Part shown: one piece after another, positions 31,957 to 55,968 of the stretch
Position numbering within the stretch: position 1 is the stretch's first letter
Layout of the letters: each line of letters begins with the position of its first letter
Source of the DNA: Bacilli bacterium
GTDB taxonomy: Bacteria; Bacillota_I; Bacilli_A; RF39; UBA660
Assembly (NCBI GenBank): GCA_017527675.1
Contig: JAFXPU010000002.1
Coordinates: 6,400 to 70,399, forward strand
Direction of reading: 5' to 3'
Length of the DNA: 64,000 nucleotides
Translations under genes and position numbers: made by a program
The notes under the pieces: generated by a model
What the model was told of the DNA's origin: nothing
Seen by the model: only the letters and a program-made list of their open reading frames with translations
The model's database searches: none

Positions 31957-31961
31957 ATAAT
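31936..31961. terminator. Bidirectional hairpin overlapping convergent stop codons
   Basis: AAAACCATTA-TTTAAA-TAATGGTTTT, a perfect 10-bp stem. Confidence 0.5.
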
Positions 31962-32345
31962 GGTTTTTTCATTTTCATCTTTCATAGGCATCACAATATA
32001 TTCTGCACCATCACTATTAGTAATATAAGCATCACTATTAATATTCTTTATAAGGTTAAAATCACTTTTGTCTAGTTTGTCAAGGTGCTTTTCTAACAAT
32101 GATTTATCAATATTATTACCTTTTATAGTATAAATATATACGTTCTTATCTAAATAAAGAAAATCACAACTATTATTGTCTTTTAAATAATATATTGGTC
32201 TTAAATTATTCTTTTTAGCATTTAGCAAATCTTTAAATGATTGAACAAAGATAATATTTTTAGAAAATAGTCTAGGAATATTAACTATTTCTACTAGAAT
32301 GTTATCATACTTTTTTAAAGTATCTTTAATTAATTTATTTCCCAT
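31953..32345 (-). CDS. Hypothetical 130-aa protein, last gene of the TasA/SipW-like cluster
   Basis: Start overlaps the stop of the SipW-like paralog by 11 nt. Confidence 0.4.
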   Translation of the reverse strand: MGNKLIKDTLKKYDNILVEIVNIPRLFSKNIIFVQSFKDLLNAKKNNLRPIYYLKDNNSCDFLYLDKNVYIYTIKGNNIDKSLLEKHLDKLDKSDFNLIKNINSDAYITNSDGAEYIVMPMKDENEKTII

Positions 32346-40300: not shown

Positions 40301-43300
40301 TACATCACCAATAGCAGCTTCAAGTGAATTATATTCAGTTCCGTTATATATCAAGAATGCTTCCTTATTAACTAAATAATTTACAGTCATTGAATTTCCA
40401 TAGTCAGAATAAGTATACATTACTTTATTGCTTAAGCGACTGTTGTTATTATAACCAGAACCTCCGCCACCAGCTGTAGCATAGTTGTTACCAGCAGCAC
40501 CACCACCGTAGTAACCACCACCACCGGCACCACCCATAATTTTATTTGAAATTGTTGATTCAGGACTACCACCTTTACCAAATGATCCATTTCCTAAATT
40601 ATTATTATAGGCAAAGTATCCAGGTCTATTTACTGTTGCACCAGTACCATAGTACTGTGGATAAGATGGAGATGGAACACCATCTGCAGCTCTGTAACCA
40701 CCGGCATCTCCACCAGAACCATATTCTGAAGAGCTCCAGTAACCAGAACCACCACCACCACCGGCAACAATTAAAATTGCTTCTTTATTATTTTCTAATG
40801 TTGATAACTCACCTGATGTTGTAGCAACATGTGTTGCTCCACCACCAGATCCAGAATAGAATCTTGTTGATGGATAAAGCATTACAGCATCTCCACCACC
40901 ATTATAACCACCTGGAATAGTAGTGTTATTATCATAACCTATTGTACCAGCACCACCAACATTAACATATAGTGTTTCACCAATACTTAATTCAATTTCA
41001 CCTGTAGCATATGAACCATATCCACCACGAATTGATTCACTATATGAACCACCTTGAGCACCCCATACTTCTATTTTGTATAAGCCAGCACATGGAGCAC
41101 TAAATGGTGCTTCTCCAGGTTCAGTAAATGAAGTAACAGAATTTTGTTCGCATACACCCTCAATAGTTTCGCCTAAATATGTTATCTTAGCATAACCATT
41201 ATTCATTTTTGCATATTCACTAATCGCTTCATCAGAAACATTATTAGTGACAATTGTTAAATTCTCTGATGTATTTTCATGTTCACTAGTAATTTCTTTT
41301 GCAGCACGTAATGCATTAAAATCTTGATTATATCCGCCTGATAAACCTCTTAAACGTCCTGAGTAGAAATTTGATGTACCACCATTTTTATATAATCCAA
41401 ATAATCCACCTGATACATATGGATCATAAATATCATTTTCAGCATTTGGATTACCAATTGTAACATATACAGTACTTGAAGCAGCATGGATACCATATGT
41501 ATCACCAACTACTGAACCATTATTCATTACTAATGTTGTTGTACTATAACTTTGTCCTGAGAACATATATATACCAACATTACCAGATTTAATATCAACA
41601 TCATTTATAGTTATAGTATTATAACTTTGACCATAATAACCTGGATTACTATAACGGTATATACCATAAGCACTACCTCCAGGTGTATTAATTATAGTAT
41701 CACCATTAATATTTAAATTACCACGTTCATCATTAATACCAAATGAATTATTAGCATTTGCATTTATTTCAACATCTGTTAATGTTACACTACTATATGC
41801 ATATACACCTGAGGCATTTTCAGCTGTCATTGTTGAATTTGTAATATTACAATCAGATTCAGAATAACAATATAAAACATACTTGTCATTACCTGAACCA
41901 GTAACAATCATATCCGTACCACTAACTGTTAAATTATCATAGTAAACTCTAACAGCACTTGATACACCAGTTATAACACTATCAGTTATCTTTATAGTTC
42001 CTCTTGGACTCTTATAAGAATCACTAAAGTAACCATAAGTACCTGTTGAAGTAATATTACTTCCATCAATTGATACCTTAGTATTATATCCTAATGTTCT
42101 AATTGCCTCATTTACTGCTGTAATAGAACTATCATTAACTTCTAATTGACAATTAGTATTTTCTAGTCTTATACCAACATTAGTTGCATTAATATCTGCT
42201 TCATTAACCACAAATTTTGAATTATCTTTGTTACATGTTAAAGCATTATAACTATTTATAGTTGTACCATCTAATGTTGCTGTTGTATTTGCATTAGTAA
42301 ATTGAATAGATGCACGTTGTCCATTATCAATAATATTCGTATCACCAATTGTTACATTTTTAGCAACTTCAATACCTTGAATATTACCACCACTAATAAC
42401 ATAATCTTCATGATTACTTAATAAAGCATATGTATCACTTTTTAAGTAAGAATCATTATCCATTGTAAATGTACCAACGTTATTAACAGCATAACCATTT
42501 TTAGCTTCAATACTAGAATTAGTAATATTTAATGTTCCATTATTATTAATAGTATTACTATTTGTAACTTGTTTTAAAATAATATTTTCAATAGTTAACT
42601 CGCCATCATTAGTAATTGGACTTGCACTTGTAATTGAACCTGGATTTTCAGATATATCATAGATTCTTAAAGTACCATTATTAGTTATTGGACTACCTGT
42701 TGTAATATTGTAACTTTGCATATTTATTTCAATATCATAATCTTCTCTTATTTCAATAGCATATGATGCCTCAAAATCTCTTACAATATTAACTGGTTTA
42801 CCCATATAGTTAGCTGTATCTATTGCATTTTGAAGATTGAAGAAATATTGAACATTTTCTCCACCATTTTCAATGATTGCAACAGCATTAGCTGGGTTAC
42901 CATTTAAGAAACTTCTTTGATATATTGTTCCAATTACTGGTTCTGTATAGAATGTATATCCACGAGGTAATGAATTAACTCCACCATTTAGAGTAAATTG
43001 ACCTTGTAAATATCCATCATAGAAGTTAAATGAGCCATTTTGTTCTAATGCTACTGTTGAACCAATAATAGCAATTGCTTCTGTTTCAATAGTTCCGTCA
43101 TTAACACCCATTGTTAAAGTTTTATTATTAACAAGACCAGTACCATCTGGATTATTAATAGTACCATTTAATAAAATCATAATACCATTATTAATAAATG
43201 CACCAGTTAAAGTATGACCACCTAAGTTGAAGGTTACATTCTTATTATTAGTTACATTTTCAGTTGTATCTTTAATAAGTTCAATTGTATCATTTTCATT

Positions 43301-46300
43301 TGCAGCTGCTAAAGCTTCAGCAATAGATACATAGTATTCATCGCCTATTTTAGCAACAGCATCATCATTAACTGTCCAAACAGCTGTAACAGTAGCATCT
43401 GATAAATTCATTGTTACAGTATTACCATCTAAGATTCCAGCCTCAGATGCTTCCCAATGATTGAATGTACAAGCATGTTTTTCAAGTTCACTTGGATTAT
43501 CAATTAATAGATATGGTTCACCATGTTTTAAGTAAACTAATCTAACTTCTTTTGATCCTTTATAGTATCCAGATTTTGGATCTATTGTTAAATATAAATC
43601 TGTATTACCAGCTATAATATCATCTATTGATAATGATTGAAGATATTTTCTTTCACTTTGTTCTTCATGTTTTGTAACAACACGTGCAAGATTAGCAATA
43701 GATGTTATTTCACCTTCCATAGCTTGGCTACCTTCAATATAACCATCATACATATTAAATGTATTATTGTTTTGTACAGCTATATTTTCACTTATTATTC
43801 TTATACTAACACTTGATACAGCTTCATCATTTTGACCCATGTTAAATGTACCATTATTAACAACAGCATAATCATCAAAGTTCATGATTGTACCATTATA
43901 AATATCAAGTGTACCATTGTTAGTTACTTTGGCTGTAATACTATATCCACCTAAATTAACTACTGCTTTACGACCAGAAGCAACTTCAATTTCGGTTTCA
44001 TCAGAAATTGGTTTTAATAAAGTAATCACACCACCTAATTCTTCATCATAAGCATTAATAGCAAGTTGTAATGATGAATAATAAGTTTCACGATATACAG
44101 CAACAGTTTGTCCACCGTAATCATTTTTAATATTTTCTAGCCATGCATATTCATAACTAGTTTCTTCATCGACATATGTTGTAACTTCTTGATCTTTTTC
44201 AACTAATGTAGTAGTTCCTACTTTAGCAAAACGAGAAGCCCAGATAACACCATCGTAGAAATTGAATGATCCATTTTCTTTATCTACACCAATACCTTTT
44301 GTAGTACCAATTGAGTGGATAACTGGATTTTCTTGAGATACATTATCTACTGAGTTGTCATAATGACCCATGATAAATGTACCTGGATTAATGTAAGCAC
44401 CATAAGTTGTTGGAGCATCAGATACATTAATTGAACCAGTTAATAATGTAGTTTGGGCATTAGCAGTAACCATATAAACACCATAGTTTTCAGCACTACC
44501 AACGGCATTTATTTCTGAATTATCAATTAAAGTGTTACCGCTGCCACTAGTTTCAATACCATAGTATTTACCAGTTTTTTGTTCAGCATGTCCAACAGTT
44601 AAACTACTTTCATTTTCTAATGTTAAAGAACCTGTATTAGAAATACCTTTAACGTAATATTTATAAGTATTAGTCTCATCAACTTTAATATTTGTATTAT
44701 TGATATCCATTGTTCCACTATTATAAATAGCTACATAAGTATCACTATAATTATAGTTTTGTGGACTACCTAAATTAATATTTGAATTATTAATAGTCAT
44801 AGTTGCTGAGTTACTAATTGAACCACCATTTGTATTAGTAACATTTACTCTTTCGAATGTTGCAATAGAATTACTTGAATTTGATATTGATCCATTAGAA
44901 CCAATTATGATATTAGTATCAGTTACATCTAAAGTAGTTCTTATACTTTCAATGTTTCCATCAAGTACTGTATTAATTCCATTACCAACAACAGTTACAG
45001 TTGCTTGGGAATTATCATTAGAATAAATACTATAGTTTTCACCACTATAATTACCACCAGTAATAGTAACATTTTTAGTATTATTAATTGCAATTTTACT
45101 AGCTACAATATTTGAAGAAGTTATATCTAATGAATTTGTATTATAAATTGCATTAATAGCATTCATTCTTGAATTATTAATTACTAAATTACTTGTATTG
45201 TTAATTATATAATTTGATGAACTAACATTAGTTAATTTAATGTTATTAATATTTAGAGTTCCATTATTATTAATTAAATTGATTGCAGATGAAGTTTTAA
45301 TATTTGCTTCATTTTCTGAATCATTAATTAAAGTAATGTTACCATTATTCGTTATTGTTTTATTTGTTGAAATTGTATAACCATGTAAGTCTAAGTTGAA
45401 ATGTTTAGTATTATTATTTGTAACAGAATAGTATAAAGGAACATTAGCTACTAAGACAACTGTTTGATCTGTATCAGCATCATTTATAGCTTCTTGTAAG
45501 TTAGTATATTCAACTCCTGTTTCCCTGTTATATGCTATAACACTTTCCATAATTAAATATTTAACTTTATAAGTTTCACCATCAATAATTTCTGTATCTG
45601 GGAATATTTGAGCATGAGGAGGAATATTAGAAATAATTCCATATTCAGCTTCTGTTGTTCCTTTTAAGATACCATCATAGAAATTAGTTGTTCCACCATC
45701 AATATATAAACCATAGAAAGTACCTTGAATCATTGGTTGAGTTATATCAATGCTATTATCTTCCACAACACCTAATATTGTTGTTCCAGTTGTATAAACA
45801 CCATAAGCACCACCAATAATAGAACCACCTGTAATAACACAGTTATCAGATGATGTATTTAAACCATTGTTATCTTCACCAGTAATAATACCGCCTGTAA
45901 TTAAGATTGTATTACCTGAATTAGTATTTGCAACACCATTTGTTTTACCAGTGATTGTACCACCATTGATAACTACATGGCCTAAAGCATAATAACTACC
46001 CTTAGTAACAGATACAGCAGTGCCAACTGTAGATGTAATAGTACCATCATTGATAGTTGTTGTACCATCTTGAATAGCAACAGCATTACTATTTGCTACA
46101 TTTGATGTAATAGTACCGCCATTAATAGTTGTTGTACCCCAGCTATCTAATGAATATGTATCAGTTCCTTCAATAGTACCACCATTAATTGTTAGAGTAC
46201 CACTACTATATACACCACCATAGTTATTAATTGTTAAATTATCAATTGTTAAAGTACCACCATTGTTAATAGCATAATCTTGATCAGCATTATATGTACC

Positions 46301-49300
46301 ACCTTCAATAGTAAGAGTACCAGTGTTATAAACAGCAGCAGTATTATATCCATCCGCATTACCATTTGAACGGATATTAGTTATACCACCATTACCAACA
46401 CTATCTTTAATTGTGTTAGTACCTTTAGTTTGAAGTGGTTGAGTCATAATAACTGAATGACCATTTAAATCGAATGTTATGATTTTACCATATGGAAGTT
46501 CTTGTTCATAATCAACATAAGCATCAGCAATAACTTCAATTGTACCTTCAGAATCAATTGCTGCTGTTGCGTTAGTTAAGGTATTATATTCAACTCCATT
46601 AACTCTTAACCAGTTACCAACTGGAACTAAATATTGAGTTTTATAATAATCACGATCAATATAAGTATAATCATCTTTGATCATATAAGCATCAGGTATT
46701 AAACCAATTAAACCATTATGTGGTTCTTCCATACCTTGTAAAACGCCATCAAAGAATTTTGTATAAGCAGTTGTATTTAAACCATATCTTTTACCAGTTA
46801 ATGATGGAGATTCAATTGATACATTTTTCTCATCATCACCTATTTGCGTTTCAGTTGATGTATAAACTCCATCAACTTCACCAATTATTTCACCAGCATG
46901 GATAGATAATTTAGCACCAATTGCATGAATACCATAAGAATCAGTACCTTTAACTTTACCACCAGTTATGTTTATGTCGTGGTAATAGCATCCACCCCAT
47001 CCAGAGTAATAACAGATATGTTCAATACCCATTGTACCAGTTACTTCACCGCCTGATACATTAGTTACCTGAGCTGTAACAACAGCAACACTATTATTAG
47101 ATTTAACTTCACCATTGGAAACTGTAATACTACCATAGTAAGAATATAAAGCATTATGAGCATTAGCTTCTACACTACCACCATCAACATGAATAGTAGC
47201 ACCAGCTCCCCCAATACCATAATTTTCGCCAAATATTGTTCCACCATCAACATAAACAGTTCCAACATTATAGTTGTATGGTGATGAAATACCCATATCT
47301 GAACCAGTAATAGTACCACCATGAACAGTTGTGTTACCTCTGTTGTTAATACCAGCAAATGATTCTTCAATATTGATATCATTTATAACTAAATTAGCAT
47401 CGTTAGTAATTGCATATTTATTAACATTAAAATAAGCATTGTTAATTGTAAGTAGACCAGATTCATTTATGATAACTTCATCTACTACTTCTGATAAATA
47501 ATTACCAGCTTCAATAGTTAATTTATTTCTATTTGTAATACCAGCAATTCTTGTTGGTTTTATTGTACCTAAATTACTGTCATCAACAATTGTTACATCA
47601 GAATCATTGTATATTGTTTGAGTACTTGTAATTGTATGACCATTTAAATCAAATGTAATATGTTTATAGCCAGTTTCTTCTGTACCATTATCAACAAAAT
47701 GTTGAGTAAATACTAAATCAGCATCTTTAATAACTGTAATGGTACCTGTTTCACCTTCACCAATAGCTTTAGATGCAGCATCGATAGAATTATATTCTGT
47801 ATCACCAACTTTTAACCAATTTTCATAATGAACAATAAAATCAGTTTGATATAAGTTTCCATCAATTTCTTCTTCACCTTCACCACCAACGCAGGCAAGT
47901 GGTAAACCAGTAATACGACCTTCATAACCATCTACTTGACCTTTTAAAATACCATCATAGAAATTAGTAACAGGTCCATCAATATATAAACCATAAGCAC
48001 CACCAATAATTACTGGATAATCTTCTGGCTCATCTTCATCAGTGTCTTCAAAACTGCCTATTGTTAAAGATCCTTTATTATAAACGCCATAGTTTTCACC
48101 ATAGATATCTGTTTCACTACCTGTAATTGTACCAGTACCCATTACCGTAATGGCATTAGCTTCACTACTATGTACTTTACCACCACTGATATTTAAGTTA
48201 GTTGTAACCAATGCATCATTTGCTGATAACACTTCACCACCAGAAATAGTAGCAGATGAAACCGAAACTGCACGACTTTCTGATGTAACCTTACCACCAG
48301 TAACTGTTAAAGAATTATTTGAATAAACACCATAATTTTTACCAGTTATCTCACCAGCAGAAATATTAACGTTGCAACTACTGATACCAATATTTTCACC
48401 TTTAACAAGTCCACCATAAACATTAACAGTTTGACCACCGCAAGATATAGCAGTATCGTTATCAGAATAAACATCACCAGCATAAACATTAACAGTTGCA
48501 CCACTAATAGCAATTCCATTAACTGATTTAATTTCGCCATTATTATTAACATTAACAGTACCTGATGAAATAGCATTACCTTGGCTAGTTATTAAACCAC
48601 CATTAGCATTAACAGTACCATAGCCATCATAGTAATTAGATATACCTGTTGTTTGAGATGAAATAGTACCATCATTTACAGTAATAGTTCCTCTATTGTA
48701 TATCATTGTTGTATCATAGTTTGTACTTATTTCACCAGCATTCATTGTAATAGTTCCTGTATTAGTAATAGCTGGAATATAATTTCTATCATCTATTTTA
48801 TAAACATGTAATTTAGTATTTTCATCTAAGACAATTGAACCAGTATTATATAAACCATAAATAGTACCATCATCAACAACTAAATTATCTGATTTATTAT
48901 ATAAACCATAATTACCAGTTGAATCAATTAATGTATCCTCAGTAAAGGTAATTACGGCATCAGTATTATTATAAATACCATATCCACCTTTAGAAGTAAT
49001 TTCTGTATCATCTAAGTTTAAAGTATTATTATTTTGAATTACGTTACTATCAGTTGTTGCTACAAGATCAACATCATCAATATCCATAACACCATTATTA
49101 ATGATTGTAAATGATGTTTTTAATTTACCATCGTCTTCAGCAGAACTTAGTATCTTGAAATATCCATTATTAGTAACTGTATTACCAATTGATACTGTAT
49201 GACCCATAGTGTCAAAGAATAATCTTGAGTTTTCAGGAATTTCTATTTCATAAGGTGCTTCAAAATTACGATGAGCATAAACTATAAAGTTTGAATCTAA

Positions 49301-50749
49301 ATCTGGTGTTAAGGCTTCTTTGTTTAATTTAGCTGAAATAAAAGCGTCTTGTAAATTGTAATAATAAACATCTTTTGTATATGGAGTTGACGTACGAGCA
49401 ACAGCACGTGATGGATTACGTACTAAATATATTCTTTGACAATTTCTTTCATCATTATGGTCAGCAAATACATAATAGTTTTCTGCTTTATCAGTATAAC
49501 CACCAACTAAACCTGATAAACCTTCAATATAACCATCATAGAAATAGAATTCAGAACCGTCTTTATTAGTTAAACCAACAGCATTACCAATTAAAGCAAT
49601 ACTATTTTCAACATAAACAAATCCATCATTTAAACCTAAATCCAAATGACCATAGTTTATAAAGGCTTCTTTGTCTTCTGTTCTAGCAACTACACGTCCA
49701 TTTGTTAAAGCAATATTACCAGCAGCTGAATTGGTAATCGTTCCATTTACTGTATGACCACCTAAGTTAAATACAAAATCGTCAGTAGTATTATTTACTG
49801 GATATTCTGTTGTATCTTTCAATAAATAAACTGTATTATCAGCAAAGTCAGCATGCTTAGCAGCATCAAAAGCATCTTGAATAGTTGGATAATATGTTGT
49901 CATAATACGAGCAACATAATCTCCTTCTTCCCAAGTAGCTTCAATTGTTACGTCTTCATCACCCATAGTAAATACATCATTAGTAAAATCATATGTTCCA
50001 TTTTCTTCTGGTGATGTAACTGTCCAACCCTTAAAGTTATATAATTCACGTGTTGGCATTGCAACTGTATATGTTTCATTTTTCTCAAGATAAATTCTTG
50101 TATCAGCTAAACGATTAGCATATACACCACCTTTAGGTTTAATTGTTAAAACATGTTGATTTTTTCTAGGTTCAGGCGTACATGTATTTTGTTTTTGAAC
50201 ATAATTAATATTAAAGAATAATTCTAGATGCACATCTTCTGTTGGATAATCTTCTAAAGGTAAATGATCTTTAAATTTAACTATAGCTTTAATCCATCTT
50301 CTTGTACCAGCATCAAGTGGATCACAAGGTAAGATTGGATCACCATTATCATAAGTAACATCAAAATCTAAATAAGCTTTTTGTTCATCAGTTAATTCAA
50401 ACTTATCAATAGATTCTACCATGGCATCAATAGAACCATCGTTTACTGTATATACCGTAAATTCATAAAAGTCGCCAGGTTGTTTTAAGTCAGCTTCAAA
50501 CTCAATACGGGTTTTAGCTCGATCGACAATTTTAGCATCATTTTCTGATTCAACTGAATCAATAGATTTTTCTACATCATCAAAATAGATAATCCAACTG
50601 CTCTTTTTAATTGTTGAATTACCATTAATTGATAATGTGCTTTTTAAAAATGCACTTCCTAAAGAAATAGACACTATTAAAAACAAGACTACGCTTGCTA
50701 TTATAGTGAATTTATTTAATTTTAATTTTAAAGCTAACTTCTTAATCAT
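34340..50749 (-). CDS. Giant (5,469 aa) secreted repeat protein: SipW-cognate-type signal peptide + TasA-like N-domain + Flg_new repeats + beta-helix-like repeats + three glycine-rich domains
   Basis: Uninterrupted 16,410-nt ORF. N-terminal KLNKFTIIASVVLFLIVSISLGSAFLKSTLSINGN then LKQPGDFYEFTVYTVNDGSIDAMV...LELFFNINYVQKQ (TasA/camelysin-like). Listeria/Bacteroides repeats (PTRELYNFKGWTV...ATW; CTFNHWEAS...AVWT). Hundreds of NxG/T-rich repeats of the parallel beta-helix type. Three Gly-rich modules (GGGATH...AGGGGGSGY). No LPXTG and no recognised C-terminal anchor. Confidence 0.9.
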   Translation of the reverse strand: MIKKLALKLKLNKFTIIASVVLFLIVSISLGSAFLKSTLSINGNSTIKKSSWIIYFDDVEKSIDSVESENDAKIVDRAKTRIEFEADLKQPGDFYEFTVYTVNDGSIDAMVESIDKFELTDEQKAYLDFDVTYDNGDPILPCDPLDAGTRRWIKAIVKFKDHLPLEDYPTEDVHLELFFNINYVQKQNTCTPEPRKNQHVLTIKPKGGVYANRLADTRIYLEKNETYTVAMPTRELYNFKGWTVTSPEENGTYDFTNDVFTMGDEDVTIEATWEEGDYVARIMTTYYPTIQDAFDAAKHADFADNTVYLLKDTTEYPVNNTTDDFVFNLGGHTVNGTITNSAAGNIALTNGRVVARTEDKEAFINYGHLDLGLNDGFVYVENSIALIGNAVGLTNKDGSEFYFYDGYIEGLSGLVGGYTDKAENYYVFADHNDERNCQRIYLVRNPSRAVARTSTPYTKDVYYYNLQDAFISAKLNKEALTPDLDSNFIVYAHRNFEAPYEIEIPENSRLFFDTMGHTVSIGNTVTNNGYFKILSSAEDDGKLKTSFTIINNGVMDIDDVDLVATTDSNVIQNNNTLNLDDTEITSKGGYGIYNNTDAVITFTEDTLIDSTGNYGLYNKSDNLVVDDGTIYGLYNTGSIVLDENTKLHVYKIDDRNYIPAITNTGTITMNAGEISTNYDTTMIYNRGTITVNDGTISSQTTGISNYYDGYGTVNANGGLITSQGNAISSGTVNVNNNGEIKSVNGIAISGATVNVYAGDVYSDNDTAISCGGQTVNVYGGLVKGENIGISSCNVNISAGEITGKNYGVYSNNSLTVTGGKVTSESRAVSVSSATISGGEVLSANDALVTTNLNISGGKVHSSEANAITVMGTGTITGSETDIYGENYGVYNKGSLTIGSFEDTDEDEPEDYPVIIGGAYGLYIDGPVTNFYDGILKGQVDGYEGRITGLPLACVGGEGEEEIDGNLYQTDFIVHYENWLKVGDTEYNSIDAASKAIGEGETGTITVIKDADLVFTQHFVDNGTEETGYKHITFDLNGHTITSTQTIYNDSDVTIVDDSNLGTIKPTRIAGITNRNKLTIEAGNYLSEVVDEVIINESGLLTINNAYFNVNKYAITNDANLVINDINIEESFAGINNRGNTTVHGGTITGSDMGISSPYNYNVGTVYVDGGTIFGENYGIGGAGATIHVDGGSVEANAHNALYSYYGSITVSNGEVKSNNSVAVVTAQVTNVSGGEVTGTMGIEHICYYSGWGGCYYHDINITGGKVKGTDSYGIHAIGAKLSIHAGEIIGEVDGVYTSTETQIGDDEKNVSIESPSLTGKRYGLNTTAYTKFFDGVLQGMEEPHNGLIGLIPDAYMIKDDYTYIDRDYYKTQYLVPVGNWLRVNGVEYNTLTNATAAIDSEGTIEVIADAYVDYEQELPYGKIITFDLNGHSVIMTQPLQTKGTNTIKDSVGNGGITNIRSNGNADGYNTAAVYNTGTLTIEGGTYNADQDYAINNGGTLTIDNLTINNYGGVYSSGTLTINGGTIEGTDTYSLDSWGTTTINGGTITSNVANSNAVAIQDGTTTINDGTITSTVGTAVSVTKGSYYALGHVVINGGTITGKTNGVANTNSGNTILITGGIITGEDNNGLNTSSDNCVITGGSIIGGAYGVYTTGTTILGVVEDNSIDITQPMIQGTFYGLYIDGGTTNFYDGILKGTTEAEYGIISNIPPHAQIFPDTEIIDGETYKVKYLIMESVIAYNRETGVEYTNLQEAINDADTDQTVVLVANVPLYYSVTNNNTKHFNLDLHGYTISTNKTITNNGNITLINDSENEANIKTSSAINLINNNGTLNINNIKLTNVSSSNYIINNTSNLVINNSRMNAINAIYNTNSLDITSSNIVASKIAINNTKNVTITGGNYSGENYSIYSNDNSQATVTVVGNGINTVLDGNIESIRTTLDVTDTNIIIGSNGSISNSSNSIATFERVNVTNTNGGSISNSATMTINNSNINLGSPQNYNYSDTYVAIYNSGTMDINNTNIKVDETNTYKYYVKGISNTGSLTLENESSLTVGHAEQKTGKYYGIETSGSGNTLIDNSEINAVGSAENYGVYMVTANAQTTLLTGSINVSDAPTTYGAYINPGTFIMGHYDNSVDNVSQENPVIHSIGTTKGIGVDKENGSFNFYDGVIWASRFAKVGTTTLVEKDQEVTTYVDEETSYEYAWLENIKNDYGGQTVAVYRETYYSSLQLAINAYDEELGGVITLLKPISDETEIEVASGRKAVVNLGGYSITAKVTNNGTLDIYNGTIMNFDDYAVVNNGTFNMGQNDEAVSSVSIRIISENIAVQNNNTFNMYDGYIEGSQAMEGEITSIANLARVVTKHEEQSERKYLQSLSIDDIIAGNTDLYLTIDPKSGYYKGSKEVRLVYLKHGEPYLLIDNPSELEKHACTFNHWEASEAGILDGNTVTMNLSDATVTAVWTVNDDAVAKIGDEYYVSIAEALAAANENDTIELIKDTTENVTNNKNVTFNLGGHTLTGAFINNGIMILLNGTINNPDGTGLVNNKTLTMGVNDGTIETEAIAIIGSTVALEQNGSFNFYDGYLQGQFTLNGGVNSLPRGYTFYTEPVIGTIYQRSFLNGNPANAVAIIENGGENVQYFFNLQNAIDTANYMGKPVNIVRDFEASYAIEIREDYDIEINMQSYNITTGSPITNNGTLRIYDISENPGSITSASPITNDGELTIENIILKQVTNSNTINNNGTLNITNSSIEAKNGYAVNNVGTFTMDNDSYLKSDTYALLSNHEDYVISGGNIQGIEVAKNVTIGDTNIIDNGQRASIQFTNANTTATLDGTTINSYNALTCNKDNSKFVVNEADINATNVGIRLENTNCQLEVNDSSITAVNEAIRTLGYNTKVSIDGSNITSTGTYGYFSDSYKSPRGTIKITDSVITGVSSAVRVYYDNLTVSGTDMIVTGSGNDKYVLYCYSESDCNITNSTMTAENASGVYAYSSVTLTDVEINANANNSFGINDERGNLNINGDTIINTPGGSAYGIYRYSNPGYYGQSYNTITINDVDIKSGNVGIYMFSGQSYSTTTLVMNNGSVVGDTYGIHAASSTVYVTIGNPNAENDIYDPYVSGGLFGLYKNGGTSNFYSGRLRGLSGGYNQDFNALRAAKEITSEHENTSENLTIVTNNVSDEAISEYAKMNNGYAKITYLGETIEGVCEQNSVTSFTEPGEAPFSAPCAGLYKIEVWGAQGGSYSESIRGGYGSYATGEIELSIGETLYVNVGGAGTIGYDNNTTIPGGYNGGGDAVMLYPSTRFYSGSGGGATHVATTSGELSTLENNKEAILIVAGGGGGSGYWSSSEYGSGGDAGGYRAADGVPSPSYPQYYGTGATVNRPGYFAYNNNLGNGSFGKGGSPESTISNKIMGGAGGGGYYGGGAAGNNYATAGGGGSGYNNNSRLSNKVMYTYSDYGNSMTVNYLVNKEAFLIYNGTEYNSLEAAIGDVEDTGTIYVFKNASLQELATVPSENNITLDLQGHTLTMTQPITNEGTLTIMNEPGLTGKIDNKASDAIINKGTLVIDNASIKSTNYAIRGNAGTGTITLQNNPTIEGYNGIYVDSAQKVIMNNGTINTTGVGVYLNAQNSEFEMKNGEISTGSESIRLVGYNTKLTVENGTVTSTNNSAIYSDSYKNPKGTINITGGTFTGGTHTIRSQYDNLTISGSDTKVISTATNRDNYAIYCSSDSNCIISDITITADNASGIYKYAPVTLTDVTINAGASNGFGINDERGYLEINGNTVINTPGSNAFGIYRYSSPSYYSQSYETITINDIEITSGNVGVYMYSYPSYSSTTLNMNNGSITGKNYGIQQTSSTVYTTIGNLNNENDIYDPYVSGGTYGIYKEAGTANFYSGRLRGSSAGYNSDFSSTREAYDIATVQESSSVTGNIITNSTEEVSEDPVSKKAKQGNGYAKITFIAEDETETFSFTNGEQTFNVTETGTYELEVWGAQGGSPNGGYGGYSTCKINLTAGDTLYINVGGQGVGSTGGYNGGGNSTGDNYYAGGGATHIAKSSGLLTTFENNRDDIIIVAGGGGGGSYGSYNAQGGSGGGNEGGHGGQSKPSLTKLAGGGTQTAGGAAGEGTYNNGAAGSFGKGANGTDYSSGGGGGYYGGGSSGVNSDIAGSGGGGSGYIKDVNIISGEMYGYQIPTDIWIVNYLVPKEAFLIVNGDEYNSFTAAIGAIEDTGTILVKSSAFVQSGATIPSSKNITINMNGKTLTMTQPLVNEGTLTIYDNGSGLLDNTITNTIENKGIMVLDGAHLKSAGSSIYGSSGTGTITLQNNPTFEGYRGIYLDSAQKIIMNNGSFDLTNVAIYLNGQNSELEMKDGSIQTTAESIRLAGYGTKVKVEDGTITSTNSSAIYSDSYKNPKGTITITGGTFTGGEHTIRSQYDNLTISGSDTEVITTATNRDYYAIYCTSESNCNISDITITADNASGIYKYAPVTLTDVTINAGASNAFGINDERGYLEINGNTIITTPGADAYGIYRYSSPGYYSQSHETININGGEITSGNVGVYMYSYPAYSSTTLNLNKGTIIAPIYGIQQASETIYVTIGNLEDENDITDPYVNGGLFGIYSSNASVNIYSGHIIGTNEAVNSIISNVRSGYEIFESNAGEISLDNQKYRTYSTTSVSEDPISHYAKMNNGYAKITYVGETVEGVCEQNHEYSYLPENAENTFTVPCTGTYRLEAWGAQGGGSNGGYGGYSEGYIDLTAGETLYINVGGVGTQYDGGYNGGGNGGSGGGQWSYGGGGATHIATASGLLSTLESNKDAIIIVAAGGGGAGGSSTTSPGGNAGGYKGNSGYDGYNNSYTSYNGTGATQTSGGKLANGSCGYGSFGQGSNFCNSGYGGAGGGGGYYGGGGSNRGHGGAGGGSGYIANPNLYNKRMYGYEVEPIYASEFIKEIYLVLEQPFIIDSSNPSEPRSNLQTAIDLADDGATLEFNADANLSYAVTIPTGKTITIDLHGHNLNMTKSITNNGTLVITNLDTNNDSKLSNSLSVTALINKDNLTISNIELENYNAVDNDENGVLTITYATNISRNQAIINSGKYTISDSTVKGSNYVIYDNSTKTNTISDSILQGTNSIYINSTPNVTITDTEITGNINNTKTNGTLSISNTNIKDIKGTISNTGTTTIKKANITHSYGNYSEFNMISNSGILTLNNNTVVFTDTYSGTNNYVRIISNSGTLNTTGNDYTLNRTYENGTYYYRYEAGIYNTAILTSNGDTFTMNKAERMYAILDNSSNSSTISNIEININRANNAFGIYADNTNSNITVDGGEFNSTDSVNTYGVYVDKGTLVTRNADYHVNGTTSAYGAFVNNGSYTIETGNIYAHAATAYGVRIDDNSTSGSITLGIKENTGFDSTTTSTIDPYIEAIGTTTGYGISRGNGAFNFYDGKFTGSTNARTAGSATSDTERNYQIKIVPAVDDQYEYCILEFMM
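35900..42300 (-). repeat. Three tandem coding repeats of about 2.2 kb each (about 750 aa) inside the giant gene
   Basis: The nucleotide landmark CCTTGAGCACCCCATRCTTCTA recurs at about 36595, 38815 and 41075. Protein units 2 and 3 are about 85% identical (TITLQNNPT(I/F)EGY...YDPYV(S/N)GG...EVWGAQGG...GGGSGY); unit 1 is about 65%. Boundaries are approximate. Confidence 0.7.
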
Positions 50750-50812: not shown

Positions 50813-50842
50813 CTAAAAAAAAAGCAAACTTGATAAGTTTAC
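50813..50842 (-). terminator. Intrinsic terminator between the 249-aa gene and the giant gene
   Basis: Minus-strand hairpin GTAAACTT-ATC-AAGTTTGC followed by T8-9 (A run at 50815-50823). Overlaps the upstream gene's stop codon. A TATAAT element lies about 40 nt upstream of the giant gene ATG. Confidence 0.5.
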
Positions 50843-51588
50843 TTGATTTTTTCTATTATTAATTTATTATCCTTAACAGCAAATTCAACAATTACATCAT
50901 TATCAACTTTTCCTATCTTGGAAATATTGTCTTTAGTAATCATTTTTTTAACTTCTTTAGCCTTAGCTTTTCCCTTTAAATAATCAGATATAGCCTTAGT
51001 ATCAACGTTATTTTGGTTATCTTTAAATTTATTATTTAAAAGACTAATATCATTATAATAATTCAAGATTTTATAAGGATTATCAACTACATATTTACTA
51101 AATGTTACTTCAAATTTTTTGTTATTTATTTTTTTAATTTTCTTTAATTCAAATTTAACAATTTTAGTTTTCGCAATGTCTGATTTTATATTAGATTTAT
51201 TATAAGTATAACTAGCATTACTAAGATCAAACACAATTCCCTTATCAGCCATATAAGGAGTAATTCCAATACTTGCAACTGCATCAATATCATATTCTTT
51301 ATCAAAATATTTGTTAACAACTTCAATTATTTCATTAGCGCTAAAAACGTTTTTATCGGTATTATTATAAAGATATTCAATAGCAAAACAAATATATTTA
51401 CCGCTTTCATCATCATGTTCTGTTATTTCCTCTAAATAATCAGCTATTTCATTACTAGTTTCTTCAACTTTTATTTTCTCTAAATTAGTCATTTTCTTTG
51501 ATTTTTTAAAGAAAATGAAGCAAGCTAAAAGAATAATTAAAAATGCTATAGCTATTATAAAATACTTATTAGTTAATACTTTTTTCAT
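50839..51588 (-). CDS. Membrane-anchored hypothetical protein (paralog A)
   Basis: 249 aa, N-terminal TM helix. Paralog of 51596..52351 (shared GITPYMxD, KKxKVT(F/Y)xKYV(V/I)(D/E)NPY(K/E)(I/V)LNYY). Confidence 0.5.
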   Translation of the reverse strand: MKKVLTNKYFIIAIAFLIILLACFIFFKKSKKMTNLEKIKVEETSNEIADYLEEITEHDDESGKYICFAIEYLYNNTDKNVFSANEIIEVVNKYFDKEYDIDAVASIGITPYMADKGIVFDLSNASYTYNKSNIKSDIAKTKIVKFELKKIKKINNKKFEVTFSKYVVDNPYKILNYYNDISLLNNKFKDNQNNVDTKAISDYLKGKAKAKEVKKMITKDNISKIGKVDNDVIVEFAVKDNKLIIEKIK

Positions 51589-51595
51589 ACTTCAC

Positions 51596-52351
51596 CTACT
51601 TTATCTTATCTATTAATAATTCATCATCTTTGACAACAAAAATAATACTAATTTTTTTATCATATTTAGCAAAATTCTTAATATCATCCTCATTGATTAC
51701 TTTTTTAAATGATGATAACGAACCAGAACCCATTAAATAACTTTTTATTGGGCTTAAATCGATTAAATCTTGTTCTTTTTTTTGCGTATTTTGTTCCATA
51801 TAATAATTTAAAACTTCATATGGATTTTCAATAACATATTTTTCATATGTAACCTTATATTTCTTACGGTTTACCTTACTCATTTTTTTTACTTTATAGT
51901 ATGCTATTTCTTTTTTAGAAATAGTACTAGCATCAACAGTATTAAAAACTATTGAATAAGTATCATTTCCAGGTTCATAAGATACATTATTATCTAACAT
52001 ATATGGTGTAATACCAACATTTTTAATATCATCTTTAGTAATTTCTTTATTAAAATTATCCTTAATAAATGTTGCTATTTCTTCACCCGTTAACCTATTT
52101 TTATTTAATTCTATTTTATTATATATCAAAGCATAAACAATATATTTTTCGTCATCTTTTGCATCTACATCTAAGTAATTTAAATAGTTAATTATTTCAC
52201 TATTTTTCTCTCTAATATTCTTCTTTTCTAATGATGATAAAGATCTAAAATGAAATAAATATATCAAAATAGTTACTAAGAATATAAAGCCTAATCCACA
52301 TAATACTATTAGGCCTAATCTACGGTTATCAACGTTTATTTTATTTTTCAT
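51596..52351 (-). CDS. Membrane-anchored hypothetical protein (paralog B)
   Basis: 251 aa, N-terminal TM helix; 7 nt gap to paralog A. Confidence 0.5.
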   Translation of the reverse strand: MKNKINVDNRRLGLIVLCGLGFIFLVTILIYLFHFRSLSSLEKKNIREKNSEIINYLNYLDVDAKDDEKYIVYALIYNKIELNKNRLTGEEIATFIKDNFNKEITKDDIKNVGITPYMLDNNVSYEPGNDTYSIVFNTVDASTISKKEIAYYKVKKMSKVNRKKYKVTYEKYVIENPYEVLNYYMEQNTQKKEQDLIDLSPIKSYLMGSGSLSSFKKVINEDDIKNFAKYDKKISIIFVVKDDELLIDKIK

Positions 52352-52382: not shown

Positions 52383-52940
52383 TTATTTCTTGATTAAAAT
52401 AACTTTATATGTTTTATCATTACTTAATTTAACAATTGTATTTGAATCAATATCATCTGTTAATTTTTTCTCATCTATTAAATCTAAATGTTTGTTAATT
52501 TTTTCAACAAACAAGGATTTACTTTTATCATTTTTATAAAAAACATAATATAATAATTCCTTATCAGTTTTAACCATAAAAACACTAGAATTATCCTCGC
52601 CTAAGTACATAATAGGTGTATCTAATTGCTCATGAGCTTTTACAAGATCATTAAAACTTTTTACCTTTAAAACATCATCATTAGCAAAATTATATTCGTT
52701 TTCCAAATAAACAATATCTGAATTATATATACGCAATATTCTTTTTATAGTTCTTAAATAATTAGATTCGTCGTCTGTTTTTCTAATCATTAAATATACT
52801 AAATAAATAATTAGAATTGCCATAATAGTTACAAAAACAATGGCATAATTAATAGCATCATTTAAAAATGATATAAATGAAGCCAAAAATAATCCTAATA
52901 TTAAAAATCCTAATACTATTATTTTATTTGTATTATTCAT
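52383..52940 (-). CDS. Small membrane protein (2 TM) of unknown function
   Basis: 185 aa; start 8 nt after the SipW-like stop. Confidence 0.45.
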   Translation of the reverse strand: MNNTNKIIVLGFLILGLFLASFISFLNDAINYAIVFVTIMAILIIYLVYLMIRKTDDESNYLRTIKRILRIYNSDIVYLENEYNFANDDVLKVKSFNDLVKAHEQLDTPIMYLGEDNSSVFMVKTDKELLYYVFYKNDKSKSLFVEKINKHLDLIDEKKLTDDIDSNTIVKLSNDKTYKVILIKK

Positions 52941-52947
52941 ATTTCAC

Positions 52948-54135
52948 CTACTTAAACATAATAGCCGGATATGCTATATAAGGTATACTAAAAACAACTT
53001 TACCTTTAATTTGCTCTTTTTTTACATATCCTTTATCAGCTACATTATTATAATCACCTTTGGTAATAAATGTATTATCACTATTAACTTTAATAATACG
53101 ATGAACAATTAATTCTTTTTCATCAGTTTTAAAGGCAATAATGTCGCCTTCTTTTAACTTGTCAACACTAAAATTTTTAGATATTATAACCGCATCCCCA
53201 ACATTTAATCTTGGAGTCATTGATCCAGTTTCAATACCCACTAATTTATAAGGCCCAATACCCGCAATTAAGCAGTATATTATAACAGCTGCAACAGCAA
53301 ATGGAATATCACTCAATTTAAAGAATGAACGTTTTTCTTCTTCTAATTTGACTTTTGAATCCGTTTGTCTAGACATTGTTATAGTGATTAAAAATGGTAA
53401 TAATAATAGGCCCAAACTATTAATATAATCATTTAAATCAGGTACAATTGGTACAATAAATATATATAATTCAGTTAAAAATCTATATAATAATGGTCCT
53501 TTATAATCAGCATAGTATACTGCATAAGTACACATTATATTTTTAAGAATTGATGGTAACATAATCGTAGATACTACATCAAACAATTCATAACTATCAG
53601 TTAAAACATCAAATCTTATATTAATAATTATATCTAATAAAGCTAATATTAAGGTAAAAACAATAATATTTGCTTTACTCTTTTTATTAGCTTTAATATA
53701 AACAAATCTAAGTATTTCCTCTAATATAATAATTAATATTAAAAAAAATGTATTATTTATAATTGATAATGGTTTTAAGGAATAAGCATTTTTTAAAAAA
53801 GACGAAGTAAAACCAATACCATATATTAAAGCAAAATACAAAGTTGCAAAAATAGCTATAATTGATATAAATACTTTATTGTGTTTTAAATTAACCTTTC
53901 TTTTAAAGCCATAAAAATAAATAGCCAAAGAAGTAATAATCATTAACACAGATGTAGTTATAGCATCAGCATATTTTAATACATTTGAGTACACAAAAAA
54001 TCTATATATTAAAATATATATAAGAATACTTGTTAAAATAACTAAATTGTAAATATTTTTCTTCTTCTTCTCTATCATACTATCCCTATATTCCATTATA
54101 ATTTTATCATTTTTTTGATATAAAAAAAAGAGCAT
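52948..54135 (-). CDS. SipW-like (S26B-type) signal peptidase fused to a polytopic membrane domain; catalytic Ser and His present
   Basis: 395 aa. About 7-8 TM helices, then IETGSMTPRLNVGDAVIISK (GSMxP Ser box) and ELIVHRII (His box) as in SipW/Sec11-type peptidases. Begins 9 nt after the TasA-like gene. Confidence 0.6.
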   Translation of the reverse strand: MLFFLYQKNDKIIMEYRDSMIEKKKKNIYNLVILTSILIYILIYRFFVYSNVLKYADAITTSVLMIITSLAIYFYGFKRKVNLKHNKVFISIIAIFATLYFALIYGIGFTSSFLKNAYSLKPLSIINNTFFLILIIILEEILRFVYIKANKKSKANIIVFTLILALLDIIINIRFDVLTDSYELFDVVSTIMLPSILKNIMCTYAVYYADYKGPLLYRFLTELYIFIVPIVPDLNDYINSLGLLLLPFLITITMSRQTDSKVKLEEEKRSFFKLSDIPFAVAAVIIYCLIAGIGPYKLVGIETGSMTPRLNVGDAVIISKNFSVDKLKEGDIIAFKTDEKELIVHRIIKVNSDNTFITKGDYNNVADKGYVKKEQIKGKVVFSIPYIAYPAIMFK

Positions 54136-54144: not shown

Positions 54145-54717
54145 TTATTGATTTTGAACATAGTCTAATTCATATGATTTTGAGAATGTGAAATCAGCAC
54201 CTGGTAAATCTTCAGCATTTATATCAAATGGGAATTCAACTCTAATAACAACATGTTGATAATTAGCTGATCCTGGAGCTAAAGTACTACCTTCAGCTGG
54301 CATACCAGTTACAGAATAAGTTACATAAGCTAAAGATGAAACATCATCACCATTTTCTCTTAAATCATCTAATAAAGCTACTAATGTACCATCATTAGCA
54401 ATATCAAAACCAAATTCAAAAAATTGACCTGGTTCTTTTAAAGTTACATTAAAAGTAATTTTAGTATCATCTGTTGTATCAATTACAGCAGTATTTCCAG
54501 GTTCAGATGTTGTTGCATCTGGATTTAAATAAGAACCGTTTGTAATAGCTAAATTTTTGAAATGTACATTCCAACCTACTCTTGAAATCTTAGCGTCACC
54601 ATTGATACTTAAAGTTGTTTTTAACTCTGCATAACCAAAACTAATTCCTGCAATTAATGCTATAAATAAAGCAATAAATAAATATCTTTTTTTGAAAACA
54701 ACGTTTTCTCTTTTCAT
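54145..54717 (-). CDS. TasA/camelysin-like secreted protein with a SipW-cognate-type signal peptide
   Basis: Signal FIALFIALIAGISFGYAELKTTLSINGD, then LKEPGQFFEFGFDIANDGTLVALL (compare B. subtilis TasA NLKPGDKLTKDFQFENNGSLAIKEV) and C-terminal YELDYVQNQ shared with the giant protein N-domain. Start moved to the ATG with AGAGGTG RBS (track start 54726 is a GTG). Confidence 0.55.
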   Translation of the reverse strand: MKRENVVFKKRYLFIALFIALIAGISFGYAELKTTLSINGDAKISRVGWNVHFKNLAITNGSYLNPDATTSEPGNTAVIDTTDDTKITFNVTLKEPGQFFEFGFDIANDGTLVALLDDLRENGDDVSSLAYVTYSVTGMPAEGSTLAPGSANYQHVVIRVEFPFDINAEDLPGADFTFSKSYELDYVQNQ

Positions 54718-54798
54718 TACACACACCTCTATCTTAGTACATTATAACATATTAATTCAATTATTGTTATATTTTTTTGAAAAAAAACAAAAAAAGAG

Positions 54799-55968
54799 TT
54801 AAAACCCTTTTCCATATTTATGATATTGGCTAATTAAATAATCATCTGTCATACCAGCTATATAATCAACAACCTTTTGTTCATCAGATGTATTATTCAT
54901 ATAATCATCACACATATAATCAAGATAAACTTTATATATATCAGCATCTTTAATATCATTTTTAACATGATATAAACATGCTTCAAATAGTTTATTAAAC
55001 ATTAATTTATAATTATCAATTTGTTCTTTAGTATTAGCCTTACTATAAATATTTTCATAATTAAATTTCTTTAAATCAACAATTGCTTTATAAATATCAT
55101 CACTTAATTTAATATATGGTTTATCCAAACTATTATTTAAAATATCCATAATAACTGTATTTATTATTTCTCCATTAGTAGTACCCAAAACCGCACGAAT
55201 ATTAGCAGGAATATCATTAATATCAATAACATTTAGGCGAATGGCATCCTCAATATCGCGTCCTATATAACCAATTACATCAGATATTCTCACAACACAT
55301 CCCTCAAGCGTCATTGGTCTTAAATGTTTTAAGGTTTCCGTATCAGCATAACATCTTTCATATTCATCCAAAAATTCTTCTTTAGTTTTTGTTTTAGGAT
55401 AATACTCATTGGAAACAAATTCCCCATTATGACATAATGCTCCATCAAGAACTTGAATACTTATATTAAATCCTTTACCATTGTTTTCAACATCCTTTAA
55501 AATACGCATACTATGAACATTATGATTAAACATACGACCAGTATATTTTAAAGTAATATCATTTAAAATATATTCACCTGTATGGCCAAATGGTACATGA
55601 CCTAAATCATGAGCTAAAGCAATAGCCTCTGTTAAATCCTCATTTAAACCTAAACCACGACTAATAGTTCGAGCTATTTTACTAACCATTTGAACATGTG
55701 TCATGCGTTTACTAATATTATCATTTTCATTATTACTAAATACCTGTGTTTTATCAATATATCTTGTATAAGATAAAGAATAAATAATTCGATCAATATC
55801 ACGAAAGAAACTAGGACGAATATCCGCATCAAATTTATCTAATCTAATACTTTCTTCGTCCTTTGTCGCATAAGGACTTAAATATAAATTGTGTCTATTC
55901 ATGTTATCTTTAATAGTCATACAATCACCTAAAAATATTATACTATATTTTTTAATTAGTTCAAGCAA
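54799..55968 (-). CDS. dGTP triphosphohydrolase-like HD-domain protein
   Basis: HVQMVSKIARTI...LAHDLGHVPFGH HD motif. Confidence 0.8.
   Translation of the reverse strand: MLELIKKYSIIFLGDCMTIKDNMNRHNLYLSPYATKDEESIRLDKFDADIRPSFFRDIDRIIYSLSYTRYIDKTQVFSNNENDNISKRMTHVQMVSKIARTISRGLGLNEDLTEAIALAHDLGHVPFGHTGEYILNDITLKYTGRMFNHNVHSMRILKDVENNGKGFNISIQVLDGALCHNGEFVSNEYYPKTKTKEEFLDEYERCYADTETLKHLRPMTLEGCVVRISDVIGYIGRDIEDAIRLNVIDINDIPANIRAVLGTTNGEIINTVIMDILNNSLDKPYIKLSDDIYKAIVDLKKFNYENIYSKANTKEQIDNYKLMFNKLFEACLYHVKNDIKDADIYKVYLDYMCDDYMNNTSDEQKVVDYIAGMTDDYLISQYHKYGKGF

Follow-up and report, generated by a model that had tools for sequence, protein, structure and literature searches.

A SipW/Sec11-type signal peptidase fused to a membrane domain of predicted, degenerate CPBP fold in a Bacilli surface-protein locus

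Judged from its motifs and profile matches, the C-terminal part of a 395-codon gene in a 64,000-nucleotide stretch of Bacilli DNA (the whole of which is termed here the window) is a true signal peptidase of the SipW/Sec11 (Ser-His) type, with every catalytic residue in place; the N-terminal domain to which it is covalently joined is, according to structural models, a CPBP/Rce1 (type II CAAX protease) fold with eight TM helices and degenerate catalytic motifs. The interpretation favored here, with a probability of roughly 0.6, is that of a dedicated Ser-His signal peptidase whose membrane anchor has been extended by a non-catalytic CPBP-fold scaffold, which positions the catalytic domain and probably docks the cognate signal anchor, with DUF5305 as an accessory. 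The contacts, the docking, the substrates of the fusion and the direction of the scaffold's effect are what we infer. The parts of the gene are as follows.

52948..54135 (-), the whole open reading frame, 395 codons, uninterrupted
53356..54078 (-), N-terminal 8-TM domain, aa 20-260, predicted CPBP/Rce1 fold with degenerate catalytic motifs
53770..53799 (-), FLKNAYSLKP, aa 113-122, conserved extracytoplasmic loop 3-4, a short beta strand in the AlphaFold2 model
53707..53718 (-), E140-I-L-R143 on TM4, putative remnant of CPBP motif 1 (EExxxR), with Glu and Arg each 100% conserved
aa 139-149 (-), EEILRFVYIKA, a motif at the position that the earlier note gave
53632..53634 (-), D168 on TM5, E/D in 90% of the family, the likely motif-2 His position by helix order and spacing
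53416..53448 (-), IVPDLNDYINS, aa 230-240, conserved extracytoplasmic loop 7-8, a short strand in the model, with P229 and P232 at 99%
53311..53361 (-), charged cytoplasmic linker, aa 259-275, of low model confidence, the break point of a split-gene variant
53260..53310 (-), TM9, aa 276-292, the membrane anchor that belongs to the peptidase itself, from the AlphaFold2 model and the SEC11 alignment
52951..53259 (-), ER/archaeal-type signal peptidase catalytic domain
53221-53223 (-), catalytic codon of Ser305
53101-53103 (-), catalytic codon of His345
53053-53055 (-), catalytic codon of Asp361
53035-53037 (-), catalytic codon of Asp367

By the open reading frame call, the minus-strand frame is one gene without a break, in agreement with the earlier note of this DNA, which had reported a single frame of 395 codons and whose quoted motifs (FLKNAYSLKP, EEILRFVYIKA, IVPDLNDYINS, GSMTP and IVHRII) all lie where it had placed them. 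The real start is probably M20 at 54078, giving a protein of 376 aa, because homologues of ~377 aa begin at the equivalent of M20 and because AGGGA occurs 4 nt upstream of that codon. (The G+C content of the window is 26%.)

Within the C-terminal part, residues ~281-392 match TIGR02228 (sigpep_I_arch) at 86.1 bits against a cut-off of 51.85, and PF10502 (Peptidase_S26) is matched at 32.3 bits against a cut-off of 22.9, so that the S26 similarity on which the earlier reading depended is present by both models. A profile of 80 family members, when compared with PDB sequences, retrieves human SEC11C and SEC11A (7P2Q and 7P2P) at E-values of 7.6e-17 and 2.6e-16, respectively. In this alignment Ser305 (of GSMTP) is in register with the Ser of SGSMEP in SEC11A/C; His345 (of the VHR box, IVHRII) is in register with IVHRV of SEC11; and TKGD361YNNVAD367 is in register with TKGDNN..D. 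Each of these four residues--that is, the Ser, the His and both Asp--is 100% conserved in the active clade, and all four occur together in 263 of the 328 collected members of at least 340 aa. The general base is thus a His, rather than the Lys that serves as general base in bacterial P-type signal peptidases. The domain comprises ~120 aa, and its share of the protein is nearer 30% than the one third given in the earlier note.

Strictly speaking, the fusion is not a SipW orthologue, though it is SipW-type, because it falls far below the cut-off of the SipW equivalog NF046067 (67.3 versus 190 bits). SipW itself is a protein of ~190 aa with one or two TM helices. The fusion resembles both SipW of B. 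subtilis and Sec11/SEC11A/C (S26B, TIGR02228) in the SM-P Ser, VHR His and GDxN Asp boxes, in the single TM anchor that precedes the catalytic domain, and in the operon link to secreted fibre-type proteins; it differs from them in having an additional 8-TM N-terminal domain and in lacking a C-terminal TM helix.

The covalent arrangement recurs across a large family. A search with the whole protein yields 185 clusters, for which the 120 matches listed are nearly all 350-390 aa in length and cover ~90-95% of the query. A profile of the N-terminal domain only, searched against 1.84 billion representatives, yields 1,499 clusters at E<=1e-3, of which 1,098 remain at E<=1e-10 (clusters being counted at 50% identity), and the best 150 of the 1,499 are almost all fusions of 370-390 aa; a divergent seed recovers a further 362 clusters of identical architecture. 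All of the named sources are metagenome-assembled genomes, assigned to Bacilli, Tenericutes, Erysipelotrichaceae or Firmicutes and obtained from human, ruminant or mouse gut, with no cultured organism among them.

A survey of other genomes for the N-terminal domain with or without the peptidase, as the earlier note had proposed, thus encounters mostly fusions; the exception is a lineage (L022/L023) in which the N-terminal domain (247 aa) and the peptidase (143 aa) are encoded by separate, overlapping genes. The split falls within the cytoplasmic linker, beside runs of five and seven A residues (A5 and A7), and the split peptidase gene has its own ATG, preceded at six bases by GAGGA. Two samples share identical DNA here, and the split is present on four contigs. 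A genuine two-gene arrangement, a pseudogene and a homopolymer error are all candidate explanations. A genuine split would provide a link between the fusion in cis and the trans pairs of S. aureus that are considered below.

Assignment of the N-terminal domain to a fold class comes from structure prediction. Residues 1-270 have no credible match to Pfam or NCBIfam even at E<=10; the family profile finds no match for this domain among PDB sequences; and PF02517 (CPBP) is matched by none of 27 family N-domains, again even at E<=10. Its CPBP/Rce1 fold lies beyond the reach of sequence methods. An AlphaFold2 model of the full-length protein, based on the family alignment (pLDDT 86.4, pTM 0.75), consists in order of eight TM helices (aa ~26-258), the low-confidence charged linker, an anchor helix (276-291) and a beta domain; when modelled alone, the N-terminal domain attains a pLDDT of 89.7 and a pTM of 0.87, and its fold matches are to CPBP proteins only. 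The earlier description of a membrane domain of seven or eight helices agrees with this model; its view that the domain is of no recognised family needs revision, in that the model assigns the domain to a known fold class.

Lys and Arg residues are concentrated in the predicted cytoplasmic loops (12.6 on average, versus 3.0 in the outside loops), which places the N-terminus on the inside and the peptidase domain on the outside, this being the orientation needed for catalysis. The two most conserved loops, GFLKNSYSL (3-4) and VPIxPDLGDY (7-8), both face outward, as the catalytic domain does, and the model gives each of them a short strand. Among 241 full-length members, G108, E140 and R143 are 100% conserved, P229 and P232 are at 99%, N128 at 95%, Y217 and P194 at 94%, E/D168 at 90%, R218 at 83% and E/D222 at 79%; by the same measure the domain has no conserved His, the highest column being 21% His. 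An exosortase-like domain was considered as well: in exosortases and archaeosortases a polytopic domain carries a catalytic Cys-Arg-His triad. This candidate was rejected, as neither Cys nor His occurs in the invariant or near-invariant columns and the fold matches are confined to CPBP proteins.

Active CPBP enzymes carry EExxxR on TM4, FxxxH on TM5 and HxxxN/D on TM7 (PMC12260438, PMC11980579). On helix 4 of the fusion family there is instead x-E140-x-x-R143, the spacing of which is one or two residues shorter than that of EExxxR and the first Glu of which is not conserved (a single family member has AEEYIRG there). TM5 lacks FxxxH and contains [L/F]164-x-x-x-[E/D]168, and TM7 lacks HxxxN/D and contains Y217-R218-x-x-x-[E/D]222, with no His. 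A pattern search of the retrieved loci for canonical CPBP genes (EExxxR...FxxxH...HxxxN/D) found none that could serve for a profile-profile alignment, and the equivalence of the motifs is therefore based on helix order and spacing. On this mapping motif 1 appears to be a shortened remnant and both catalytic histidines appear to have been replaced, and the domain is probably not a protease. The strict conservation of E140, R143, E/D168 and Y217 could, however, mark a catalytic or ion-binding rather than a structural site.

A paralog of the fusion, also within the window, bears upon what the membrane domain does. It and the features associated with it are as follows.

32335..33540 (-), 401-aa paralog with the same predicted CPBP-fold domain and a catalytically dead signal peptidase domain
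32644-32661 (-), TSAIGP, with Ala at the Ser position
32527-32544 (-), IIDRIA, with Asp at the His position
33549..34247 (-), subunit paralog of 232 aa, its anchor followed by a Pro-rich stalk of 41 aa, the likely cognate of the dead paralog
31953..32345 (-), C-terminal DUF5305-like fragment of 130 aa, 3' of the dead paralog, a weak match at E 0.016

The paralog is 31% identical to the fusion over its full length (E 3e-40), and the two share the membrane domain, as the earlier note said. It is not another peptidase, a point that the earlier note had missed, since the Ser and the His are absent and the two catalytic Asp positions hold Lys and Thr. By its conservation pattern, it is a member of a conserved clade of dead enzymes rather than a case of one-off decay: in a dead clade of at least 60 clusters, the Ser position is occupied by A (52%), N (15%) or other residues and the His position by D (80%), while G108, E140 and R143 are kept at 100% and D168, P194, Y217, P229/P232, G313-D314 and Y389-P390 at 80-100%. 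Because this clade preserves the invariant residues of the N-terminal domain, that domain must have a function for which peptidase catalysis is not needed, most simply binding. The window and four other loci (L003, L019, L020 and L021) share one arrangement: the dead paralog occurs 3' of a distinct type of subunit (with the anchor ...ISIAYASLAxNLGxK and usually a Pro-rich stalk), 5' of a DUF5305 gene, and beside a giant protein with ALK/LTK glycine-rich domains, whose length is 5,469 aa in the window, as against 5,900-7,300 aa in the other four.

The genes that surround the active fusion in the window suggest what its substrates and partners may be.

54145..54726 (-), 193-aa secreted subunit, the probable substrate, with an anchor ...GISFGYA followed by ELKTTLSINGDAKI and then a beta-rich domain
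52383..52940 (-), 185-aa truncated DUF5305-like protein (PF17231 at 28.0 bits against a cut-off of 29), proposed signal peptidase accessory subunit
34340..50749 (-), 5469-aa surface protein, with signal anchor and N-domain as in the 193-aa subunit and three ALK/LTK glycine-rich domains

The usual order, in most loci examined, is a secreted subunit of ~180 aa, the fusion peptidase, DUF5305 and often larger proteins, with the equivalent of the 193-aa gene directly upstream of the fusion. In the ~180-aa subunits the signal anchor ends in ...G(I/V)GYA, and the motifs (A)L(S/T)xTLxIxGxxxI and then W(D/N)VHF come after it; the larger proteins, of 300-1,300 aa or more, start with an anchor and domain of this same type. 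The relationship extends to the 5469-aa protein, whose N-terminus matches the 193-aa subunit at E 2e-20 and whose three glycine-rich domains match PF12810 at 118 bits, and to the 232-aa protein, which shares the anchor and domain at an hhalign probability of 99.9. The GYA site conforms to the rule of small residues at -3 and -1, and the residues that follow it alternate in hydrophobicity in the manner of a beta strand; such a strand would be compatible with a donor strand, though this is not evidence for one. From gene adjacency and the AxA-like GYA site, the substrates of the fusion are probably these adjacent secreted proteins.

The DUF5305 copy next to the fusion has two TM helices and a cytoplasmic part; its score falls just short of the PF17231 cut-off, which the neighbour at the same position passes in all ten of the other loci tested. 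DUF5305 (TafG) has been proposed to be an accessory subunit of the dedicated signal peptidase of archaeal Tat-fimbriae and AbpX loci, and fimbriae are lost when the TafD peptidase is deleted (PMC11821415, PMC12337348, bioRxiv 10.64898/2026.01.04.697558). The polytopic signal peptidase I of AbpX, Tafi and TasA-superfamily loci, as described, is like the fusion in having a TIGR02228 peptidase and many TM helices, and in its location beside subunits, DUF5305 and tip or adhesin proteins (10.64898/2026.01.04.697558; PMC11821415). The AbpX-associated enzyme was described in January 2026, in one sentence, as having 'ten TM helices', with its fold unnamed and with no mention of CAAX, CPBP or Rce1 (bioRxiv 10.64898/2026.01.04.697558); the fusion has nine TM helices in the model.

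Sequence matches do not support homology of the window subunits to the AbpX/TasA subunits. A profile of 17 subunits, when searched against Pfam and PDB sequences, matched neither TasA, camelysin, AbpA nor any other fibre protein, and returned only weak Ig/Fn-like matches, with one of the 17 matching PF12389 at E 0.012. The designation 'TasA-like', which the earlier note had given to the 193-aa protein, therefore stays at the level of a hypothesis that these searches did not bear out.

Outside of these loci, a close parallel is the SpbR-SpsB pair of S. aureus, in which a degenerate, polytopic CAAX-protease-like protein is likewise paired with a type I signal peptidase; SpbR was found in 2025 to bind and control the peptidase, contacting both its TM helix and its extracellular domain, and it has the motifs HELYMR, FIYLD and QIVAI, in which mutation of the retained Glu and Arg was without effect (PMC12260438). 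SpbR and the fusion are alike in keeping the Glu and Arg of motif 1 and in having an acidic residue in place of the motif-2 His (for the fusion, by the spacing-based mapping); they differ in that SpbR and SpsB are separate proteins, SpsB being a peptidase of the bacterial Ser-Lys type and the effect of SpbR inhibitory, whereas here there is one polypeptide with a peptidase of Ser-His type. A second S. aureus complex, SpdC(LyrA)-SagB (PDB 6U0O), offers a precedent for a scaffold that orients a membrane-anchored hydrolase, though its partner is a glucosaminidase and unfused, and the sequence identity is 9-10%. From Rce1 and other CPBP glutamic proteases, including the myxosortase MrtX, the fusion differs in lacking the histidines of FxxxH and HxxxN/D and a PF02517 match, and in having the spacing ExxR rather than EExxxR. 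For the paralog at 32335..33540, the precedent is SipA/LepA of S. pyogenes (PDB 4N31), an inactive signal-peptidase homologue that is required for pilus polymerisation (PMC4049620); there, too, an S26 fold without catalytic residues is kept in a pilus or fibre operon, although SipA lacks a polytopic domain and the pili that it serves are assembled by sortase.

From these observations the following mechanism is proposed. The CPBP-fold domain itself would cut nothing; rather, it would pack on the TM helix of the peptidase and fix both how high above the membrane the catalytic domain stands and how it is oriented. Its lateral, membrane-embedded cavity and its two conserved outer loops would dock the long signal anchor of the cognate subunits, bringing the GYA site to Ser305 and His345, with DUF5305 as a likely accessory subunit. 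Once cleaved, the subunits and the giant adhesin would each have a free beta strand (xLxTTLxIxG) at the N-terminus, available for assembly at the cell surface. In the dead paralog, the docking domain may likewise hold a cognate subunit, in many cases a type with a Pro-rich stalk, but leave it uncut, so that this paralog might serve as an anchor or as an assembly chaperone.

SpbR inhibits rather than helps its peptidase, so that the effect of the fused domain could go in either direction. The CPBP-fold domain could instead be a built-in regulator or gate, holding the peptidase in check until the restraint is lifted by a cognate substrate or by DUF5305, in which case cleavage would be limited to fibre proteins or timed to assembly. 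It is in favor of such a gate that the only characterised pair of a CPBP homologue with a signal peptidase, SpbR-SpsB, is inhibitory (PMC12260438), that fold and motif degeneracy are common to both, and that the proposed change of the motif-2 His to an acidic residue matches FIYLD of SpbR. A permanent, covalent 1:1 inhibitor of a dedicated enzyme is hard to rationalise, however, and the dead paralog keeps the domain though nothing is left to inhibit; a gating function is thus considered rather unlikely. Somewhat more doubtful still is that the domain is a catalytically active intramembrane protease whose site is non-canonical (E140 and E/D168, with R218/E222 in place of the oxyanion His/Asn), which would clear the released signal anchor in the manner of signal-peptide peptidase or make a second cut in the substrate. 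This would account for the invariant polar residues on TM4, TM5 and TM7, the helices that bear CPBP motifs 1-3 (PMC11980579), and there are active CPBP enzymes, myxosortase among them, that act on sorting signals. But both catalytic histidines are missing throughout the family, so that the sortase-like role which the earlier note had entertained lacks the residues that it would need; PF02517 is unmatched by any of the N-domains tested; and the characterised CPBP homologues of degenerate motif, SpdC, SpbR and LnsB, are non-catalytic, with mutation of the retained motif-1 residues of SpbR having no effect (PMC12260438).

Two further explanations carry very little weight. That the domain forms a channel, a transporter or a translocon reserved for the subunits is suggested by the fusion of a polytopic domain to a secretion-related enzyme, but neither a channel nor a polymerase role has supporting evidence, and this explanation is rejected as highly improbable; of the roles listed in the earlier note, positioning of the peptidase is the one that best fits the evidence. 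That the fusion reflects no more than misassembly or a frameshift between two genes, a condition under which the earlier note would have withdrawn its reading, could appeal to the L022/L023 lineage, in which the modules are separate overlapping genes near A-runs. This explanation is refuted by the continuous frame in the window and by the family-wide fusion architecture (360-400 aa overall, with the 370-390-aa form coming from hundreds of independent assemblies), to which the split form is the exception; its probability is close to nil.

The scaffolded signal peptidase remains the preferred reading, and two more speculative extensions of it, together given a low probability, may be envisioned. 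In one, the CPBP-fold domain is a signal-anchor receptor, and the active and dead paralogs together constitute an undescribed, sortase-independent fibre-assembly machine of monoderm gut bacteria: cuts made by the active fusion in the subunits and the giant adhesin would expose a donor strand, and the dead fusion would retain a stalked subunit, uncleaved, as a membrane-embedded base or usher. In the other, the domain is a new catalytic variant of CPBP, with carboxylates and Arg in place of His.

A full-text literature search found no description of a fusion between a signal peptidase and a CPBP domain, and public annotation labels the family simply as 'signal peptidase I'. The type of peptidase, the concept of a CPBP scaffold, and the fibre locus combining a signal peptidase with DUF5305 are already known separately; what is new here is the covalent combination, the fold assignment, the conserved sister clade of dead peptidases and the split form. 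The fusion (in ~1,500 clusters), the split lineage and the dead clade are an independent, evolutionary line of evidence for CPBP-fold scaffolds and signal peptidases functioning as a unit. Being compact and a single chain, the fusion also lends itself to structural studies of signal peptidase positioning at the membrane and of substrate recognition. Finally, it gives a fold to a domain hidden under the label of 'signal peptidase I', and it points to an uncharacterised system of surface fibres and giant adhesins in abundant, uncultured gut bacteria.

Besides the fusion peptidase, which joins an eight-helix CPBP/Rce1-fold domain to a SipW/Sec11-type signal peptidase, the window encodes a 401-aa paralog, with equivalents at related loci from other genomes:

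Window 32335..33540 (-), paralog
L003 14268-15479, equivalent
L019 10001-11185, equivalent
L020 10001-11170, equivalent
L021 10001-11182, equivalent

The window paralog is a conserved pseudo-peptidase. Across its clade (at least 60 clusters), the position of the nucleophile Ser is occupied by Ala in 52% and by Asn in 15%, and that of the general-base His by Asp in 80%; the invariant residues of the CPBP-fold domain are retained despite these altered catalytic residues. At all of these loci the pseudo-peptidase gene is bordered by a distinct subunit gene and by a DUF5305 gene.

The fusion itself is found in a split form at two further loci:

L022 2738-3875, split fusion
L023 2689-3826, split fusion

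Here one gene encodes the 247-aa N-terminal domain and a separate, overlapping gene encodes the 143-aa peptidase, the latter with its own ATG and a GAGGA. The split point lies within the cytoplasmic linker, next to A5/A7 runs, and the DNA of this region is identical between the two samples; the split could represent a genuine two-gene form, a pseudogene or an error in a homopolymer run. One other family member, P0229 (812 aa), which came from the search of representative sequences, has a degenerate peptidase region followed by calcineurin-like phosphoesterase and 5'-nucleotidase C-terminal domains, and may be an additional fusion or a mis-joined gene call.

The DUF5305 partner occurs in two forms:

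Window 52383..52940 (-), window clade
L016 10951-12027, divergent locus
L017 8662-9717, divergent locus
L018 10924-11973, divergent locus

At the divergent loci the protein is full-length (~350 aa) and spans the entire Pfam model; within the window's clade it is truncated to 135-265 aa, retaining only profile positions ~118-215, which comprise two TM helices and the cytoplasmic part.

Other genes nearby are as follows:

Window 54799..55968 (-), HD + HD_assoc phosphohydrolase (dGTPase-like)
Window 51596..52351 (-), ~250-aa single-pass membrane protein
Window 50839..51588 (-), ~250-aa single-pass membrane protein
L007 312-800, type IV pilin-like
L009 219-713, type IV pilin-like
L018 2401-3000, type IV pilin-like

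The phosphohydrolase gene, an ordinary housekeeping context upstream of the fusion-peptidase operon, likely marks the operon boundary. The two membrane proteins, whose genes are flanked by the DUF5305 gene on one side and that of the giant adhesin on the other, are paralogous and gave no family match; counterparts are conserved in L003, at 311 and 277 aa, and in L021, at 263 and 257 aa. Several related genomes encode type IV pilin-like proteins (MKK..KGFTLVELL...) ~10 kb or less from the fusion-peptidase operon.

Two further window genes lie beside that of the pseudo-peptidase:

Window 33549..34247 (-), 232-aa subunit
Window 34340..50749 (-), 5,469-aa ORF

Subunits beside the pseudo-peptidase carry ISIAYASLAxNLGxK as their anchor, and often have a Pro-rich stalk as well. 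In the 232-aa subunit a stalk-like, 41-residue Pro/Glu/Lys-rich insertion (PKPVEPDKPQPEPEPQKPDKEPG...) separates the post-anchor strand from the beta domain; it recurs in the L003 and L019 subunits and is absent from that of L020. At its N-terminus the 5,469-aa protein shares the signal anchor and beta domain of the 193-aa subunit. Further along, long beta-helix-like repeats surround three ALK/LTK glycine-rich domains (PF12810, 118 bits), with WGAQGG at aa 3229, 3982 and 4722. At L003, L019, L020 and L021 the giant proteins are 5,900-7,300 aa long and carry this glycine-rich domain too; there, as in the window, such a protein always adjoins the pseudo-peptidase.
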